Shown here one piece after another: positions 10,068 to 58,361 of a stretch of DNA of 64,000 nucleotides; position 1 is the stretch's first letter; every line of letters starts with the position of its first letter. The DNA lies in the IMG/VR virus record IMGVR_UViG_3300034171_000062, positions 1 to 64,000 of that record, one strand, 5' to 3'. Below the pieces are notes generated by a model. That model was not told the DNA's origin, ran no database searches, and saw only the letters and a list, made by a program, of their open reading frames with translations. Position numbers and translations under genes: made by a program. This DNA is from a virus. Taxonomy: Duplodnaviria > Caudoviricetes.

Positions 10068-10143
10068 TAACGTAGTCACTAAACACAGGAGGGAGGCCTA
10101 CGGGTCTCCCTTTATGCTGCCTCGATTCCTTGATTCAACGGAA

Positions 10144-10169
10144 TTACAAACCTATATCACACACGTGAG
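10144..10169 (+). promoter_or_regulatory. putative early promoter (TATATCA)
   Basis: ttacaaaccTATATCAcacacgtga. Confidence 0.6.
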
Positions 10170-10230
10170 TTGGTTATCCTAACCGCTTGAATCTAACTCT
10201 TTAATCCGCAATCTGTAAAAGGTAATTATC

Positions 10231-13556: not shown

Positions 13557-13582
13557 TTTGAGACCTATATCACACTGGTAGC
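13557..13582 (+). promoter_or_regulatory. putative early promoter (TATATCA)
   Basis: tttgagaccTATATCAcactggtag. Confidence 0.55.
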
Positions 13583-50335: not shown

Positions 50336-50391
50336 AGCAACACATTAGTTAGGGGAGTGAAAGCTCCTCTATTTTTGTCTATTCCACTAAA

Positions 50392-50446: not shown

Positions 50447-50701
50447 ATGATCAATGAAATACAAGCCGTTAAGAACACCATTGGCAGCATTCGCCACGCC
50501 CAGACTCAAACCGACGAAGCCTTGGCTGAGATCCAAACGCTGGGCGAACTCTGTAACGCAGAAGCCACGGCCCTCTATCGGAAATATAAGAACGACGTAA
50601 TCACCTATGTCGATTACAATACCCAACTGGACGCAGTGATTGAATATCAAAAAGAGGAAGGCGATCACATAGAGCGGCGTCACGCCGAGCGGACTCGTTA
50701 A
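50447..50701 (+). CDS. hypothetical early protein
   Basis: AGGAG RBS. Confidence 0.7.
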   Translation: MINEIQAVKNTIGSIRHAQTQTDEALAEIQTLGELCNAEATALYRKYKNDVITYVDYNTQLDAVIEYQKEEGDHIERRHAERTR

Positions 50702-50759
50702 TACATAACTGTCACACGATCTTTGCATTACCCATAACCTATATCTAGGAGACACCACA

Positions 50760-51062
50760 ATGTCCTGTAAGAACGTATTCGCTGTACTTCAAGTAACCCC
50801 AGTCCAACTGGCCATCGTTTCACACAGCGTCCCTGAGGGGACTTCAATGGGTCTTCCACAGGGGTTGACTGACCGTTGGCGTGTAGTTGATCTCGATTCG
50901 GTGGTTGAACAAGAAGACGGGGCTCTGTTGGAGTTCGTAGGACTCAACGAAGCCGTTGCGTATCAGAACCTCTGGCTAGAAAGCGGCATCATCCAACGGT
51001 CTCTCTTATCGCGCACTTATGACCTAATCGGGGAATCGTCTCATGACCGCAACAGTCAGTAA
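50760..51062 (+). CDS. hypothetical protein
   Basis: AGGAG RBS. Confidence 0.65.
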   Translation: MSCKNVFAVLQVTPVQLAIVSHSVPEGTSMGLPQGLTDRWRVVDLDSVVEQEDGALLEFVGLNEAVAYQNLWLESGIIQRSLLSRTYDLIGESSHDRNSQ

Positions 51063-51423
51063 ACCTCAACCCAAGTCTCGTGTTCGGTCCAAAGCGGAAT
51101 TTGTTCGATTACTGTGGAGTAGTCCTCAAGCCGACTTCGTGGCGACCTTGCCCAAAGTACCGTCGTTCATCGTAATTGAGCGAGATAAGAACAATCTCAT
51201 GTTGGTGCCGTGGACTGACGCCCTGACGAGTTCGTCTATCCCAGCGTGGATTTGGTGGCCGTGTTATTTTAGCGACCGAGATTCTGTGCAGCAGATTCGG
51301 TCCATGTCCTATCCCACCATCGAACCTAACTTTCAGGTCATTGATCTAGACGACCTGAAGGAGATCCGGGATCGTTATTTAGAAGACCTTCGAACGACTC
51401 AACACACTAGGCCGTTCACGTAA
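51043..51423 (+). CDS. hypothetical protein
   Basis: Overlap-coupled ORF. Confidence 0.6.
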   Translation: MTATVSKPQPKSRVRSKAEFVRLLWSSPQADFVATLPKVPSFIVIERDKNNLMLVPWTDALTSSSIPAWIWWPCYFSDRDSVQQIRSMSYPTIEPNFQVIDLDDLKEIRDRYLEDLRTTQHTRPFT

Positions 51424-51490
51424 TCTTTAGAAGAATTGCAAGACTTCACCCACACTCAACAATCTAACCTCTATTGATAAGGAATTTAAC

Positions 51491-52036
51491 ATGACCGATC
51501 ACACCAATAAAGACGACACGATGATCAACGTCGGTCACCAGTTGGTTGAACTAAATGTTTCCATACAAGATCTGATCGATAAAACCGGTCTGTCGCCCGC
51601 TCAGTTTTATCGCGACTTCCGCGAGGAGTTCGGATGTACGCCCACTGAGCATAGAGAAAGGACTCGACAGGAAAAGAAAGACCGTGAAGAGAAGATTGTC
51701 CGTGAAGAGACCTTCAATTTCATGGTGAGTCTCCAACAGGCCGCGAACACCCCACACATCACGAATCAACATCACCAACGTCCAGTCAATTCGGAGTTGA
51801 TGGTGCCTTTGATTGTGAATGGACAATTCGGGTTCACGGCGTACGTTGTGACGATCTCAGGGAAGTGCCCAACTTCCGACGGCGTTGAGTTTCTGCGAAG
51901 CGAATACCGCGACATGTTCAACGCCATGGTGGTGGACACACTCATGCCCTATTTCCACGGAAAGGTGAACATAGCGTACCTTCAAACCCTTAACTCAGGA
52001 CCAATGGTCCAACGCCCATACGGAGCGTGGCAGTAA
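51491..52036 (+). CDS. AraC-type HTH domain protein
   Basis: SIQDLIDKTGLSPAQFYRDFREEFGCTPTEHR. Confidence 0.75.
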   Translation: MTDHTNKDDTMINVGHQLVELNVSIQDLIDKTGLSPAQFYRDFREEFGCTPTEHRERTRQEKKDREEKIVREETFNFMVSLQQAANTPHITNQHHQRPVNSELMVPLIVNGQFGFTAYVVTISGKCPTSDGVEFLRSEYRDMFNAMVVDTLMPYFHGKVNIAYLQTLNSGPMVQRPYGAWQ

Positions 52037-52133
52037 AGAGTCGATTGACCCTGCCAGGCGAAGTACAACAACGCATTGAATGAATAATTCACTAAATAAA
52101 TACCCCCCCCCCATAACCTTTAAGGAATCTACT

Positions 52134-52304
52134 ATGTTTGACTTTATCAGCAACGCTGGCGTATCCAACAGTTTTTACATGGCATCGGTGTTCGTTCTTT
52201 GGGCAGGCGTAGACTACGTCATCGTCAAAGCAATTGACGCCCGCAAAGCCAAGAAAGAAGAAGCTGCTCGCTTTGTAAACCGTAAACCTTCCATCATCTA
52301 TTAA
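52134..52304 (+). CDS. small single-TM protein
   Basis: AAGGA RBS; hydrophobic segment followed by a basic tail. Confidence 0.6.
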   Translation: MFDFISNAGVSNSFYMASVFVLWAGVDYVIVKAIDARKAKKEEAARFVNRKPSIIY

Positions 52305-52314
52305 GGAAACCTTT

Positions 52315-52734
52315 ATGCATCAAGTTCAGTTATTCGCTTACGCCATCTCCGCCTACATCGATCGCAACGGATTACCACACACCCCTCGCATCGTTGTGTC
52401 TCATGACTTGCATACCCTGATTACACAAGCCACGTCTTTACTGACCGACTTGATGGACGACATCACTGGGGACGAACACGACGAGATCAACGTCGCTGGA
52501 ATGTTGATGACGCACTACCACGACATGGAACCGATGGTCACCAAGGACGTCTTCCAGGACCTCGATGAAGACGAGACCTACGAGAATGCTCCCAAGTTCT
52601 ACGTCGCGATCGGAGTGGACGAAGACGAATTGGAAGACTTGTTGATTGCCGAAGTTGGAGCTGTCGACGACGAAGATGAAGACGAGTACCTCGAAGAAGA
52701 CGGGGAACTCGAAGAAGACAACGAAGAACTGTAA
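52315..52734 (+). CDS. highly acidic protein
   Basis: D/E-rich C-terminal half. Confidence 0.7.
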   Translation: MHQVQLFAYAISAYIDRNGLPHTPRIVVSHDLHTLITQATSLLTDLMDDITGDEHDEINVAGMLMTHYHDMEPMVTKDVFQDLDEDETYENAPKFYVAIGVDEDELEDLLIAEVGAVDDEDEDEYLEEDGELEEDNEEL

Positions 52735-52810
52735 GTGCAATAATCGGTGAGGCACTGCCTCACCTTTTTTCCCCCACTTAAACGTAACCTTTAACGATGG
52801 GACATCAATC

Positions 52811-53968
52811 ATGACACCCACTAAACCTAGCAATTCCTTTTGGATCGCCCAGGTGGCGTTGGATTCAGCGTTCGGCGCGGTATCGATCTCGCCAGAAGAC
52901 CGACAAAACTTCATCGATGAGTATGGCCGTACCCCAGAAGAGTTTCAAATTCGGTACATTCATCCTGACATCGACAACCCCCGGATGGATCGGGGACAGT
53001 ATTTCGTTCAGTTTCAACCGGGGGCGACACATTTCTCGGGCGGTAAACATTTCTCCCAACAGTTAGATCTTCTGTCGATGACATTAATCGACGTCGTTAT
53101 GATTACGGCGGGCGGTAAGCGCACGGAAGCCTTAACGGTGAGTTATGAAGATACCGATCGCCCCCGCACCCACCGCGTTAAGTTACTCGACCAAAGTGGG
53201 TCCTTAGTGGCTTACGTTTCATACGCCAATGTCGCGATCAAACTCACTGAGTCCGATCTACCCAACGATGACTGGACCATCTCAATGACGGTTCAAACCG
53301 TCGACGTAGCCTACACTGACGCTGCCCATCGTGATAACCCAACCAACCAACCCAAGGAACATCGCCTCATGAAACCCGACTCTATGAAGAAATCGTCGAT
53401 CGCCAAACACCCTGAAGTCACCGCCACTACAACCGCCCCTGGCAGCTGGCACCATTTGTTACCGGTGTTGATCTTGGGCAAAACCGCCCTTGAGGTGGAC
53501 CTGATGGATTGTTCGGAAGAAGAGATCAGCAAGTTGCGTAACGAATGGTTCTGGCTGGATGCGCGTAACACGAAGCTTCCCCGGACGCCGATCAGTCTGA
53601 CCATGGCTCTGGATAGTCAGGACCGACTGATCGACATGGCCAAGAGTTTTATCGGCGTTTACGTGTACCATTCGAAAGGACGTCCCATTACCTCCCACCT
53701 ACCTATCCGAGATACCGACGATCTCGCCATGACGTTGCTGTTAGACGGCAGTTTCTGGGAAGAGGTGAGTGTGGAGTACCCCTCAGTCATTGAGGAATGG
53801 TTGTATGGCCCAGACAAAGACGACCATCGGGTGGTAAAAGACGTCCACACCGCGTTACTGATGCAGAAGCACTTTAGCATGATCGATGGCGTGGAACCTG
53901 CTGTCGAACCGATCCCTGCGCCGCGTAAGTCGCGTGGTAAAGGAAAGGTACCTAAGCCCACTAAGTAA
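52811..53968 (+). CDS. hypothetical protein
   Basis: 385-aa ORF. Confidence 0.7.
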   Translation: MTPTKPSNSFWIAQVALDSAFGAVSISPEDRQNFIDEYGRTPEEFQIRYIHPDIDNPRMDRGQYFVQFQPGATHFSGGKHFSQQLDLLSMTLIDVVMITAGGKRTEALTVSYEDTDRPRTHRVKLLDQSGSLVAYVSYANVAIKLTESDLPNDDWTISMTVQTVDVAYTDAAHRDNPTNQPKEHRLMKPDSMKKSSIAKHPEVTATTTAPGSWHHLLPVLILGKTALEVDLMDCSEEEISKLRNEWFWLDARNTKLPRTPISLTMALDSQDRLIDMAKSFIGVYVYHSKGRPITSHLPIRDTDDLAMTLLLDGSFWEEVSVEYPSVIEEWLYGPDKDDHRVVKDVHTALLMQKHFSMIDGVEPAVEPIPAPRKSRGKGKVPKPTK

Positions 53969-54127
53969 CACCCCACCGCATACGGATCTGTTATTTTGTA
54001 CAGGCTCGTATGTATCTATTGACCTAATCGGCGGCTCGGGAGTGATCCCGCAGTGGGACTTCAGTGCCCACTGAATGCTCTGCCCTTATGCCGCTTCTAT
54101 TCCATAACCTATATTCAAGAGACTACC

Positions 54128-54661
54128 ATGATCAACACCCCATCCACGTCTGCTGACCTTGTTGCCCAACAGTTAGTCGACACCGACTTGACTATAACAG
54201 AGATCTGTTCGACGTTGTCAATCGACGATACCCCACTTCTCAAACAAGAATTTAAAACCAAATACGGCACCACCTATGAGGCATATCGGAACCATCTTAG
54301 ACTTTGGTTTAAGCCTCGTACGGCGGAGAACCTAGCCAAGCCAAAGGAGAAATTTCCCTGGCGTGGGACCGACACGTCGGACGATGACCTCGCTCGTCAC
54401 CTCTCCACTGTGGTCTCACATCTCGAAACGAGCGATATCTCGGTTCAGGCGATGTTTAAGCAATTTCCGTTTTCCAATAGTCTTAGGTTACGGATGGCCT
54501 TTAAAACCAAATACGGCACCACCTATGCCGCCTACCGGAAGCAGCGTCGTCCGGAGTTTAACCTAACGAAGACCACTGTTTCCGATGGTCTTGCCGAAAC
54601 GAATCGACTTCTAAAACAGATTCTAGAACAACTAAAAGCAAACTCACCCCATAGTCTTTAA
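54128..54661 (+). CDS. protein with two AraC-type HTH repeats
   Basis: TDLTITEI...FKTKYGTTYEAYR and SDISVQAM...FKTKYGTTYAAYR. Confidence 0.7.
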   Translation: MINTPSTSADLVAQQLVDTDLTITEICSTLSIDDTPLLKQEFKTKYGTTYEAYRNHLRLWFKPRTAENLAKPKEKFPWRGTDTSDDDLARHLSTVVSHLETSDISVQAMFKQFPFSNSLRLRMAFKTKYGTTYAAYRKQRRPEFNLTKTTVSDGLAETNRLLKQILEQLKANSPHSL

Positions 54662-54671
54662 AGGTTGCCCT

Positions 54672-55124
54672 ATGTTGAATCCGGTGTATGCAGACGCTAT
54701 CGTTGAAAACATGTCATGTACCATGCTACACCTGTATGGTAGCACCTTGTCCGAATACCCGAACGTTTTAAAGCAAGCGGTGGAAACTCTGGCACGTCAG
54801 GACATGCGTTACGTTTACAAGAAAGGAGAAAAGGTTTGGGTTGGCGATGCGGCCATTGCGACCGACTTCCAGATTGACGTTATGGAATCCGACATTGCAG
54901 AGGTGGTGGACCCGTCTCTGCCGCCAACGCCTCCTGGAGTGGAGTTGGATACTCACACATACACCATCGAGGACGTGGTTCTCAATGTCTCGGACGAACG
55001 CAGCACGGTCCCCTGTCGCGTGGAGATCGTGGTGGTAGACTACGAAGCCGACGACGCTAAGAAAGATACCGAGGACTTGAAGTATGAACGGACCATTCAA
55101 TTGGTGTTCTACGTGTTAAAATGA
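54672..55124 (+). CDS. hypothetical protein
   Basis: AAGG RBS. Confidence 0.65.
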   Translation: MLNPVYADAIVENMSCTMLHLYGSTLSEYPNVLKQAVETLARQDMRYVYKKGEKVWVGDAAIATDFQIDVMESDIAEVVDPSLPPTPPGVELDTHTYTIEDVVLNVSDERSTVPCRVEIVVVDYEADDAKKDTEDLKYERTIQLVFYVLK

Positions 55125-55134
55125 GGAGAGCTGG

Positions 55135-55542
55135 ATGAACAATCAAAAGGACGGTTGGAGCAACGTGATAACCCGGGTAGAAAAACAGAAGAGTAATGAA
55201 GCGTTTCTTAGAGAATTGGCTAAGCGTGTCAATTACCCTATCGCCACGAGGTCTGTCAACGCCTTAGCTGCTGGAGGCGTTGACACCGAAGAGAAATTAC
55301 TTAAGCTTACTGAGTACGACTTACGTAGAGCTCCCAATGTGGGCGACCTAACGGTACAGGACATTACGGAACTTCAACGATTACTGACCGGCGAGATTGA
55401 TTTGAGAAACTGCCTCCTTCGTGGATTAAGTGACATTTCTACTATGGTAAAAGATGCCCCTGCCGATAATGTTCTCGCCCTGGAGGTCAAAGCCAAAGTC
55501 AATAAAGTCCTCAGGGACTATACGAAGCACAATAACTTGTAA
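55135..55542 (+). CDS. RNA polymerase alpha-subunit C-terminal-domain-like protein
   Basis: TRSVNALAAGGVDTEEKLLKLTEYDLRRAPNVGDLTVQDI aligns with alpha-CTD [40 protein letters not shown]. Confidence 0.8.
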   Translation: MNNQKDGWSNVITRVEKQKSNEAFLRELAKRVNYPIATRSVNALAAGGVDTEEKLLKLTEYDLRRAPNVGDLTVQDITELQRLLTGEIDLRNCLLRGLSDISTMVKDAPADNVLALEVKAKVNKVLRDYTKHNNL

Positions 55543-55552
55543 GGAGTCGATC

Positions 55553-56662
55553 ATGTCCAAGATCTGGCGTCTTCAACGCATCCGAGACGAATTGCTCTTG
55601 GATTTGATCAACCATCCAAACATCACCATCGATGAATTGGTCAACCGATACAACACGTCTAAGACTAAGTTGTACGAATACTTCAGAGAGGAGTATGACA
55701 CCACCCCTGGGCGGTGGCGTAAGACGTATTGGCGGGGTGTACATTGGGCGGCTCGGTTCTATCGCAGTGCGTTTGTGGTGTCAGTGTGCAGTGACTTCCA
55801 AGACCAGCGGGTCACCGACGAGTGCTACATCGACCGTCTGTTTCACGTCGAAGACACACCCATGACCTACTCGGTGGTGCAGGTGGAAGCGCGTATTGGG
55901 GATCGGTCCTACGCGTTTTCAACCAACCAACGCATCCAAGTCGACGAGTGGAGCAACATCCACTCCACCCAAGGCAATTACACTTTGTCAATCCGTCTCA
56001 AGCGGGGCGGGCAGCGACCTATGGTCACGGCGTTCCTTAGTCTGGGGAGTCACCACGGTGGGCAGATATCGATGCCGTACGAGTTGACGGTGACGGTGTT
56101 AACACGGTTGGTGGGGTACGACAACAGCGTACTGTCTTCGCCTCCGGAGACGCTACCCGTCCCAGAACCCTTAACCATGGTCCCAATGACCTCAGGTGCC
56201 GACTTCGACCTGGCCACTCGATCGGTGTACCTCTTACATCTGGGTCGACAGATTCTGTTACTAGGGATGTACGAGGCGGTGAGTCTGGCGGCGGTCAAAC
56301 GACTCAACTCTCGATGGCAAGGTGTGCCTCTGAACAACGCCCTACGTCGAAAGTTGAGGACGGCGTTTCATACGGGAGAGTACATAGAGATATCCCTTAG
56401 AGAAGCCTTAGAGATGCAGGACCGGGTGGTGACCGTCATGAACCAATACGACGGCATACCTGTATGCTTGTTTGAGATTAACAATACTCGGTATCTGGTG
56501 TCCTTGGAAGAACAACCAGACTTAAGTGATTTGGCGGTGCTGTATCCGTATTTGGAATCCGCGCCCACCAGAGTAGCCAAAGAGACAGTCAGAGAAGTGG
56601 CTCGCTCGCACGGAGCGGTTTGTGCGTCATTACAAGACTTAACCAACGTCATGCGGACATAG
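55553..56662 (+). CDS. AraC-type HTH domain protein
   Basis: ITIDELVNRYNTSKTKLYEYFREEYDTTPGRWR; AAGGAG RBS before ATG 55553. Confidence 0.7.
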   Translation: MSKIWRLQRIRDELLLDLINHPNITIDELVNRYNTSKTKLYEYFREEYDTTPGRWRKTYWRGVHWAARFYRSAFVVSVCSDFQDQRVTDECYIDRLFHVEDTPMTYSVVQVEARIGDRSYAFSTNQRIQVDEWSNIHSTQGNYTLSIRLKRGGQRPMVTAFLSLGSHHGGQISMPYELTVTVLTRLVGYDNSVLSSPPETLPVPEPLTMVPMTSGADFDLATRSVYLLHLGRQILLLGMYEAVSLAAVKRLNSRWQGVPLNNALRRKLRTAFHTGEYIEISLREALEMQDRVVTVMNQYDGIPVCLFEINNTRYLVSLEEQPDLSDLAVLYPYLESAPTRVAKETVREVARSHGAVCASLQDLTNVMRT

Positions 56663-56697
56663 AGGAGGGGCATCGGCCCCTCCTCTTATTTTTTGTC
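56655..56697. terminator. bidirectional terminator between the early block and the tail/lysis operon
   Basis: agaggagggg-catcgg-cccctcctct-tattttttgtc. Confidence 0.8.
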
Positions 56698-56927
56698 TAA
56701 GCCGTCGGATCAACGCGCACGTCGTACGCTGCCCCACGTTTGATGGGCACCACCTCCCCTGGGTAAGCTGCGCCACACAATAGCGGTCCGGCCAAGTAGA
56801 TGATGCTGGGTACCAACTTGGGGTCTACGTTTGCTAATTTACACAACCCTTCGTACGTCAGGTCTTTGGAGCGGTCAACTAAGACCTCTTTATTGTTCAC
56901 GGTGATGGCTACGGTATTTTTTGTCAC
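56697..56927 (-). CDS. ubiquitin-like (multi-ubiquitin domain) protein
   Basis: AITVNNKEVLV...LTYEGLCKLA...IIY...G..YPGEVVPIKRGAAYDV fits the Multi_ubiq beta-grasp pattern. Confidence 0.6.
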   Translation of the reverse strand: MTKNTVAITVNNKEVLVDRSKDLTYEGLCKLANVDPKLVPSIIYLAGPLLCGAAYPGEVVPIKRGAAYDVRVDPTA

Positions 56928-57752: not shown

Positions 57753-58361
57753 TTACCAAGAAAATGTGAGTTCGGCGCAGTTACTGACGCCGTTCAACGT
57801 GACGTTATCTAGTACTTCGTGATATCCGTTACCTTCCCCAAGACCAACGCGACCCACTAAGATGTAGCTGCTTCGAGTGGTCCAATTTAACTTAGCCGTC
57901 GAGCCCCCACAGTACTTTATCCGAGCGACCATATCTGCTGTGTAATTTTCGGCGGCGTGACTGGCCACGATGACGATCACCGCGCCGTCGGCCAACCGAT
58001 CGATGCCGTCGACGAACGCCTGCTGCTGTTGGTCGGCCACATTGACGTCCCAGGTGTCGTATTGTGGGAGGTGAATCGACTTACTCCGGTCGACGTTCAG
58101 TGACCCCGCAAAATTAACTGAATTGTCCCAATCTCCAGCAGATTCGTCCCAAATAAAGAATGTCCACGCCCGCGGCATATTCGGTGAGATGCCCATTCCA
58201 TACTCTTCAACTCGGGCTGGCGGTACATAACTATCTTGGGGATAGGGTTTGGCTCTCACGGTAAATTGACGCGGTCGTCTATAAATAACCTGATTATTTA
58301 GAACCATACGAAGAACATCATCTCCTCCGGCGGTTATTCGTTTAGCTGCCGTTAGTTTCAT
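57753..58361 (-). CDS. GG/ILEI-PANDER lectin-domain protein (tail-fibre associated)
   Basis: FVDGIDRLADGAVIVIVASH...IKYCGGS...RSSYILVGRVG matches the GG domain (T4 gp35, POMGnT1 stem). Confidence 0.7.
   Translation of the reverse strand: MKLTAAKRITAGGDDVLRMVLNNQVIYRRPRQFTVRAKPYPQDSYVPPARVEEYGMGISPNMPRAWTFFIWDESAGDWDNSVNFAGSLNVDRSKSIHLPQYDTWDVNVADQQQQAFVDGIDRLADGAVIVIVASHAAENYTADMVARIKYCGGSTAKLNWTTRSSYILVGRVGLGEGNGYHEVLDNVTLNGVSNCAELTFSW

Follow-up and report, generated by a model that had tools for sequence, protein, structure and literature searches.

We examined a gene cluster in the first 64 kb (hereafter the window) of IMG/VR virus record IMGVR_UViG_3300034171_000062, a 170,557-bp (170.6-kb) sequence of an uncultured phage with an estimated completeness of 62%. 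The cluster encodes a 135-aa protein resembling the C-terminal domain (alpha-CTD) in the alpha subunit of bacterial RNA polymerase (RNAP), which lies among proteins carrying AraC-type helix-turn-helix (HTH) units. The four open reading frames (ORFs) singled out by a first-pass annotation of the sequence (starting at 51491, 54128, 55135, and 55553) were all recovered on the plus strand (Table 1), and GGAG-type ribosome-binding sites and 10-nt gene spacings were seen at their genes. Three matches to HTH_AraC (PF00165) and the sole match of the record to the alpha-CTD model (PF03118) all fell within 51.5–55.7 kb. Overall, the identities are supported: the phage is predicted to carry a stand-alone, extended alpha-CTD homolog together with half-AraC HTH regulators.

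A stand-alone alpha-CTD homolog

PF03118 (RNA_pol_A_CTD) matched residues 37–79 of the 135-aa protein with 25.2 bits, above the curated cut-off of 23.8 bits (E 1.3e-5), and when all of the 170.6-kb record was searched in six frames, its ORF (55135–55542) was the only match (E 1.5e-6). The NCBIfam rpoA models gave a weak match over the same stretch (residues ~37–79), and no further helix-hairpin-helix (HhH) Pfam family matched the protein at E ≤ 1. At E ≤ 0.01, a profile built from the five-protein phage family described below retrieved nothing but RNAP alpha subunits from the PDB (26 distinct sequences, best E 8e-6).

In the AlphaFold2 model (predicted local distance difference test score, pLDDT, 81.5; 85–90 over residues 21–80), an N-terminal helix (residues 3–31) precedes an (HhH)2 core (about 36–85), which is followed by a C-terminal helical hairpin (90–104 and 113–133). 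The best local Foldseek matches were nearly all alpha-CTDs (root-mean-square deviation, rmsd, 1.1–2.2 Å over 44–55 residues, 22–29% identity), with probabilities of 0.96–1.0 but E values of 0.3–2, which are weak for so short a domain. The absence of any hidden Markov model or structural match, which the first-pass annotation had given as grounds for abandoning its proposal, was therefore not what we found. Using VIA-align, the model scored Z 6.8 against the alpha-CTD of Bacillus subtilis (1z3e_B; rmsd 2.0, 58 residues, 26% identity), on a par with NusA AR1 (Z 7.5, 13% identity) and the HhH region of DNA ligase A (LigA, Z 6.9). The fold is therefore a generic (HhH)2, and it is sequence, not fold, that singles out alpha-CTD. 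The alpha N-terminal domain (alpha-NTD; PF01193/PF01000) is absent from the ORF and, because that domain is missing, the protein cannot act as an RNAP subunit of the bacterial kind.

Conservation of the 265 determinant

Alignment of the family to residues 245–329 of Escherichia coli RpoA (sequence from the MG1655 record) showed that the core of the 265 determinant (R265, N268, N294, and G296) is present in the 135-aa protein as R39, N42, N68, and G70. RpoA T285/E286/V287/E288/L289 corresponds to T59/E60/Y61/D62/L63, P293/N294/L295/G296 to P67/N68/V69/G70, E302 to D76, and K271 to A45. K297/K298/S299, the basic and polar residues of the determinant that contact the DNA backbone, are not kept and correspond to D71/L72/T73. 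The first-pass observation that R265, N268, and PNxG are retained and that KKS is replaced by DLT is thus exact. The sigma-contacting 261 determinant (D258-D259-x-E261) has no counterpart, the aligned positions being N33/Y34/P35.

Compared with the bacterial RpoA CTD (residues 249–329, PF03118), the phage protein therefore has the same (HhH)2 fold and keeps R265, N268, P293, N294, G296, T285, E286, and L289, but it is not fused to an alpha-NTD, differs at K297/K298/S299 (D/L/T) and K271 (Ala), lacks D258/D259/E261, and is extended by an N-terminal helix of 30 residues and by a C-terminal helical hairpin of 45. Across the phage family, the position of K271 is occupied by Ala, Thr, or Leu, and K298 and S299 are retained only in P0002. 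Retention of R265, N268, N294, and G296 in four of the five members, together with K298 and S299 in P0002, argues for selection on the 265-determinant surface. The flanking helices contain invariant residues that are specific to the family (R31, Q81, L94, L95, G97, L98, and D100).

A rare family with a patchy distribution

Word-indexed and exhaustive HMMER searches recovered the 135-aa protein, P0002, P0003, P0005, and P0006 as full-length family members, plus a fragment. Out of 1.8 billion representatives, only about five clusters belong to the family, and all of them seem to be encoded by phages. The ORFs were intact in five lineages (44–60% identity), with 20 invariant positions that included the fold core and the family-specific helices. 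P0002 and P0006 matched PF03118 with 35.2 and 33.7 bits, while P0005, the most divergent member, whose neighbor genes are unrelated, scored 19.9 bits (below cut-off). Searches with tblastn of the 135-aa protein and of P0002 against 50,697 phage records returned nothing, no PHROG matched the family, and scans of IMG/VR and JGI metagenomes recovered the same two phages only. The remaining significant matches were cellular metagenomic proteins in which PF03118 is repeated 2–11 times in tandem and, in some cases, fused to sigma70 region 4; multi-repeat proteins of this cellular kind (P0004, P0007, P0008, and P0010) were the nearest non-phage matches to the phage family.

Our comparative set consisted of five related uncultured phages. 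In a complete 222-kb sister genome (G001; contigs L010/L015; IMGVR_UViG_3300032135_000001), a homolog of the 181-aa HTH protein (56% identical) is followed by counterparts of the 74-aa protein and the acidic protein, a shortened 385-aa homolog, two 150-aa paralogs, a 102-aa alpha-CTD-like protein without the last helix, and then an unrelated 417-aa protein. Reading through past the stop codon of the 102-aa homolog gave no remnant of the missing C-terminal helix. In L009, a 150-aa homolog comes first, then two alpha-CTD-like genes in succession, and finally a 369-aa homolog. The tandem pair (L009:433-1219, on a Logan SRR34468982 contig) encodes P0002 (135 aa, K298 and S299 kept) and P0006 (122 aa, D-V-S at 297–299), an arrangement that suggests sub-functionalization after duplication. 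On contigs L016–L018 and L022, homologs of the 150-aa and 369-aa proteins are encoded directly adjacent to each other and more N-terminal-HTH proteins are present; no alpha-CTD-like gene was found within the 7–8 kb upstream flank and the downstream sequence on each contig. Because these sister phages keep the 150-aa/369-aa pair without it, the alpha-CTD-like gene is an accessory insertion between two conserved genes, with no obligate single-neighbor partner.

Half-AraC HTH proteins

The first-pass annotation described isolated AraC HTH units without sensor domains in three proteins. Two of these, the 181-aa and 177-aa proteins, scored above the PF00165 cut-off of 26.6 bits (Table 1), and the third, the 369-aa protein, was sub-threshold (14.4–18 bits; HTH at residues ~21–57) and was assigned by paralogy to the 181-aa protein (BLASTP E 7e-5). 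A profile of the phage units gave the 369-aa protein 103 bits, but its ORF is among the eight source sequences of that profile, and the BLASTP match is the independent support. Homologs of the 369-aa protein (P0157 and L017:7475-8569) are 52–54% identical, with the strongest conservation at the N-terminus (70% identity in L009), and its AlphaFold2 model was of low confidence (pLDDT 52). The HTH unit of the 181-aa protein lies at residues ~22–55 and is followed by ~120 further residues. No sensor domain was recognized, and outside the HTH units Pfam, PHROG, and NCBIfam gave no domain for either the 181-aa or the 369-aa protein. The description of these proteins as lacking sensors holds in this sense only, since they have ~120 and ~300 additional residues, respectively, of no recognized fold.

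The 177-aa protein, which was absent from L010, L017, and L022, contains units at residues ~18–55 and ~97–141, and matched HTH_18 in two stretches as well as phrog_11275 and phrog_7620. Its ORF includes a 62-nt direct repeat (copies 79% identical, 249 nt apart), and the HTH unit has therefore undergone a recent internal tandem duplication. By eye, the alignment hinted at one more HTH unit, at the start of the 385-aa protein (52811), but this candidate was rejected because a profile of the clear units gave it no support (E 2.1).

The PF12833 (HTH_18) search proposed with the initial annotation did yield an AraC-type match, but only positions 38–80 of the 80-position model were covered, below its cut-off. 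When searched against PDB, the phage-HTH profile matched only AraC-family chains (XylR, MarA, SoxS, GadX, Ada, AdpA, and Rob), and the alignments always fell on the second HTH subdomain (MarA 63–116, XylR 346–385). The units therefore represent the second AraC subdomain only, the first being missing. They share with the AraC/XylS domain of MarA, SoxS, Rob, and XylR (PF12833/PF00165) the second-subdomain signature F-x-x-x-(F/Y)-G-x-(T/S)-P-x-x-(Y/F)-R, but have one subdomain per unit, placed N-terminally rather than C-terminally, and no recognized ligand or dimerization domain. The bipartite ~100-aa AraC DNA-binding domain was not found even in the 177-aa protein, whose two units are duplicates of one subdomain repeated 83 residues apart.

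These proteins form a lineage-specific set of small proteins, each beginning with a single second-subdomain AraC-type HTH unit. No close relatives of the three HTH proteins were detected among the 50,697 phage records, and megablast and tblastn searches of the same collection with the region and with two of the HTH proteins returned nothing. Group 1 (phiKZ-like) jumbo phages are known to encode predicted AraC-like HTH activators, such as QGZ14570.1 (Iyer et al. 2021, PMC7824862), and the proteins described here are of the same phage group and HTH class.

Gene organization and local motifs

The region is a variable, non-structural part of the phage genome. Strong terminator-like hairpins were found at 50350, 52746, and 56661, and the cluster is therefore predicted to span two transcription units (about 50447–52734 and 52811–56662), split by one of these hairpins. 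In the second unit, gaps of 10 nt separate the four genes at its end. GGAG sites were seen for the starts at both 55135 and 55553, and the choice of these starts is backed by the N-termini of homologs. Past 56686 lie convergent minus-strand lysis and tail genes, which encode a 76-aa protein, a muramidase endolysin, and tail fibers.

Table 1. Genes, terminator-like hairpins, and candidate motif sites in the cluster (window coordinates)
Feature	Position	Strand	Remarks
181-aa protein, N-terminal AraC-type HTH	51491..52036	+	Upstream transcription unit; PF00165 31.6 bits
74-aa small protein, one hydrophobic stretch	52080..52304	+	Homologs in L010, L017; no family match
139-aa protein, acidic Asp/Glu-rich C-terminal tail	52315..52734	+	BLASTP to L010, L017; no significant family match
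Intrinsic-terminator-like hairpin, then T-run	52746..52764	+	8 pairs, 6 GC, TTTTTT
385-aa protein, first gene of second unit	52811..53968	+	No Pfam/PHROG match; partial homologs in L010, L017
177-aa protein, two AraC-type HTH units	54128..54661	+	PF00165 35.8 bits; only in the present phage
150-aa protein, no family/atlas match	54672..55124	+	Conserved upstream neighbor of alpha-CTD-like gene
135-aa stand-alone RNAP alpha-CTD homolog	55135..55542	+	PF03118 25.2 bits
369-aa protein, N-terminal AraC-type HTH and ~300-aa C-terminal region	55553..56662	+	Sub-threshold PF00165; paralogy
Strong intrinsic-terminator-like hairpin ending second unit	56661..56686	+	11 pairs, 8 GC, T-run
Sites of candidate motif (C/T)CCATAACCT(A/T/C)TA(T/A)	50731-50753, 51465-51475, 52110-52126, 52785-52797, 54101-54123		

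Among the other genes of the region, the acidic 139-aa protein (long Asp/Glu-rich tail) is conserved in three sister phages and could be DNA-mimic or chaperone-like. The 150-aa protein and the C-terminal region of the 369-aa protein yielded only rows of low score or low template-modeling score in ESM Atlas, on poor models. The 76-aa ORF directly after the endolysin (56697–56927, minus strand) had a weak Multi_ubiq match (E 0.03, below cut-off), with a homolog in L010 (67%) and two copies in L017. A 202-aa protein among the tail and lysis genes (57753–58361, minus strand) had a sub-threshold match to ILEI (interleukin-like EMT inducer; 24 versus 27 bits).

Promoter and word searches lent no support to the initial labeling of the cluster as early: a scan for sigma70-type promoters gave 4 matches, fewer than in shuffled sequences (10.4 ± 3.6), and when k-mers ahead of 210 crude gene calls were compared across the genome, only Shine-Dalgarno and terminator words were enriched. 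The motif (C/T)CCATAACCT(A/T/C)TA(T/A) (short form CCATAACCTATA) occurs 12–25 nt upstream of five start codons in the cluster (Table 1), and a looser pattern, AACCTNTA(T/A), was found 18 times on the plus strand and twice on the minus strand of the whole record. The CCATAACCT motif may be a phage promoter or translation-initiation element, although it bears only a loose resemblance to the AT-rich early consensus of the virion RNAP (vRNAP) of phiKZ-like phages (PMC5312081). An element of ~45 nt (TTCAAYGGAATTAYARACCTATATCACA..GTGAGTTGGTTA) was present in two copies 87 kb apart (window 10129–10195 and G000:C1:97252-97318); both contain a ACCTATATCACA core, which occurs again at 13563 and 50397.

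A phiKZ-like jumbo phage with split RNAP genes

PHROG matches across the record (including phrog_3231, phrog_3004, phrog_2943, and phrog_3213) placed the uncultured phage among phiKZ-like jumbo phages. The record encodes a major head protein of the phiKZ type (719 aa), virion proteins matching phrog_3004, phrog_3293, and phrog_3430, and a tail sheath, in addition to a DnaB-type helicase, a split polymerase, and an NAD ligase. Two RNAP beta-like subunits (phrog_2986 and phrog_3148) were located at 126.3–131.0 kb, and phrog_3242 was also matched; these phiKZ-type split beta/beta' RNAP genes were found by PHROGs, the Pfam RNAP models being barely sensitive to phage RNAP. Thus, the head, tail sheath, and virion proteins and the split multisubunit RNAP by which phiKZ-like jumbo phages are recognized are all present. 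Among cultured phages, the closest major capsid protein was that of Xanthomonas phage Xoo-sp14 (38% identity), and the phage is only distantly related to cultured ones.

The alpha-NTD model (PF01193) had zero matches in the whole 170.6-kb record, itself only ~62% complete. This is consistent with the non-virion RNAP (nvRNAP) of phiKZ, which consists of five polypeptides without an alpha subunit (PMC8287921), and agrees with the statement in the first-pass annotation that phiKZ-like RNAPs have no alpha subunit.

Possible roles of the alpha-CTD-like protein

We tentatively favor the explanation that the alpha-CTD-like protein may act as a soluble mimic of the host alpha-CTD, which would compete with host RNAP and divert or damp host transcription. 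The 265 determinant is both the surface that contacts UP elements in the minor groove and the docking site for SoxS and MarA ("pre-recruitment"), and its occupation represses UP-dependent promoters (PMC9638938). A free copy of the domain, unable to assemble into RNAP, would compete for the ligands of this determinant, namely A/T-rich UP-like DNA and/or regulators that dock on the 265 surface, and the helical extensions could supply oligomerization or a second partner. As a result, transcription dependent on host RNAP would be diverted or damped, and the phage would use its own alpha-less polymerases. Family genes were intact in all members found, with a tandem duplicate in one phage, which supports this explanation. 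Several observations weigh against it. The replacement of K297/K298 by D/L should weaken contacts with the DNA backbone, K271 and the 261 determinant are lost, P0005 has H and G in place of R265 and N268, and on structure alone the core is equally near the (HhH)2 domains of NusA AR and LigA. Moreover, the function is dispensable, because the family is very rare, and it is unclear where a mimic would act if the phage builds a nucleus.

The first-pass annotation suggested that the module would sequester host activators or reprogram host promoters for stress and defense. It linked the alpha-CTD-like protein to the neighboring AraC-type proteins, and docking of AraC-family activators on alpha-CTD is indeed known: SoxS and MarA touch the 265 determinant via helices alpha1 and alpha2 of the first HTH subdomain (PMC9638938), and 10.1101/2020.07.15.203596 reports that AraC-defective rpoA mutations cluster around K271. 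In this phage, the link is weaker because the HTH units lack the alpha1/alpha2 contact surface, because K271 is replaced by Ala, Thr, or Leu in the family, because sister phages keep HTH proteins without an alpha-CTD-like gene, and because a strong terminator splits the cluster into two transcription units. The neighboring HTH proteins most probably regulate by binding DNA on the phage's behalf, independently and not as obligate partners of a mimic.

It is less likely that the alpha-CTD-like protein instead serves phage transcription, whether as a partner of the HTH proteins of the phage (or of the conserved 150-aa protein) acting on phage DNA or as an accessory of the alpha-less RNAP. The gene shares an operon with the 150-aa and 369-aa genes at 10-nt spacings, the order 150-aa, alpha-CTD-like, 369-aa recurs in L009, the complete sister genome of 222 kb likewise has an alpha-CTD-like gene and an AraC-HTH gene at a distance of 3 kb, AraC-family activators can dock on alpha-CTD (PMC9638938), and the conserved family helices (R31, Q81, L94-L95, G97-L98, and D100) suggest a dedicated protein partner. 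However, L017 and L022 have adjacent 150-aa and 369-aa genes without an alpha-CTD-like gene, L010 keeps the alpha-CTD-like gene but has the unrelated 417-aa gene downstream, the helices that would be needed for AraC-type docking are missing from the HTH units (PMC9638938), and the proximity of AraC-type genes in two genomes is inherited synteny, not independent co-occurrence. In a variant that we consider very unlikely, the free protein would act in trans and provide the alpha-less phage RNAP with an "activator handle": the helical extensions would dock on the phage RNAP, and the 265 surface would be met by phage HTH activators or upstream promoter DNA. If true, a virus would have reinvented recruitment through alpha-CTD for a multisubunit RNAP that is non-canonical.

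Also rather improbable is that the protein is a generic (HhH)2 protein that binds DNA without sequence specificity or has an architectural role (in replication, repair, or genome organization), its likeness to alpha-CTD reflecting ancestry only. HhH domains commonly bind the DNA backbone, the pI of the whole protein is 8.7, and NusA AR1 and the LigA HhH region are structurally level with alpha-CTD. However, the family profile matches only RNAP alpha chains in PDB, the Pfam search gave no other HhH family, the alpha-CTD-specific R265 and N268 are retained, the HhH core is acidic (net −2), and the neighbors are regulators, not replication genes. The rarity and patchiness of the family among sister phages, and the shortened L010 version (102 aa), could also be taken to mean that the gene has no function and is decaying, having been captured as a fragment of a cellular gene with alpha-CTD repeats; this is the least probable of the explanations considered, given the intact ORFs in five lineages with their 20 invariant positions, the intactness of both tandem copies, and the good ribosome-binding site and operon spacing.

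Comparison with known systems and significance

Cultured-phage relatives were sought by tblastn of the phage collection with the E. coli alpha-CTD. Besides host contamination, two genuine PF03118 genes were found: Goe8_c00050 of Bacillus phage vB_BmeM-Goe8 (L012:1959-2591; 210 aa, 78 bits), annotated as "RNA polymerase subunit alpha" and located among small genes near the left genome end, and gp23 of Ruegeria phage vB_RpoS-V16 (L013:2432-3298; 288 aa, 41 bits), annotated as "HTH-domain containing protein." Phage-borne alpha-CTD domains thus already exist as annotations. Like the 135-aa protein, both have an alpha-CTD domain without alpha-NTD and sit amid small non-structural genes, but they have stronger PF03118 scores and other architectures, belong to unrelated phage families, and have no detectable full-length similarity to it. 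Several phage-collection records carried a complete host rpoA with 90–100% identity to the E. coli alpha-CTD (matches H16–H34), most likely through contamination with host DNA or mis-binning of contigs; examples are contigs of Acinetobacter phage MD-2021a and short "phage" records from Salmonella, Listeria, and Staphylococcus.

Other phages act on the host alpha subunit by different means: Alt and ModA of T4 ADP-ribosylate R265 of the host alpha-CTD, and Rac of a Pseudomonas phage mediates cleavage of alpha. These systems are cited in PMC5312081 and PMC7824862. If the 135-aa protein acts as a decoy, it would share their target, the function of the alpha-CTD 265 determinant; however, Alt, ModA, and Rac are enzymes that modify the host subunit, whereas the 135-aa protein would be a competitive mimic and has no catalytic domain. 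In the searchable literature, we found neither functional studies of phage alpha-CTD proteins nor a functional description of a competitive stand-alone alpha-CTD mimic.

While the value of the finding is limited by the rarity of the family and the lack of a cultured phage or known host, a decoy, if confirmed, would establish a new and simple type of inhibitor of host transcription and would lend itself as a probe for whatever docks on the 265 determinant. Should the protein instead work with the phage polymerase, it would show how activators can regulate alpha-less viral RNAPs. The half-AraC HTH proteins would be a further, lineage-specific family of regulators in phiKZ-like phages, whose control of gene expression is little understood.

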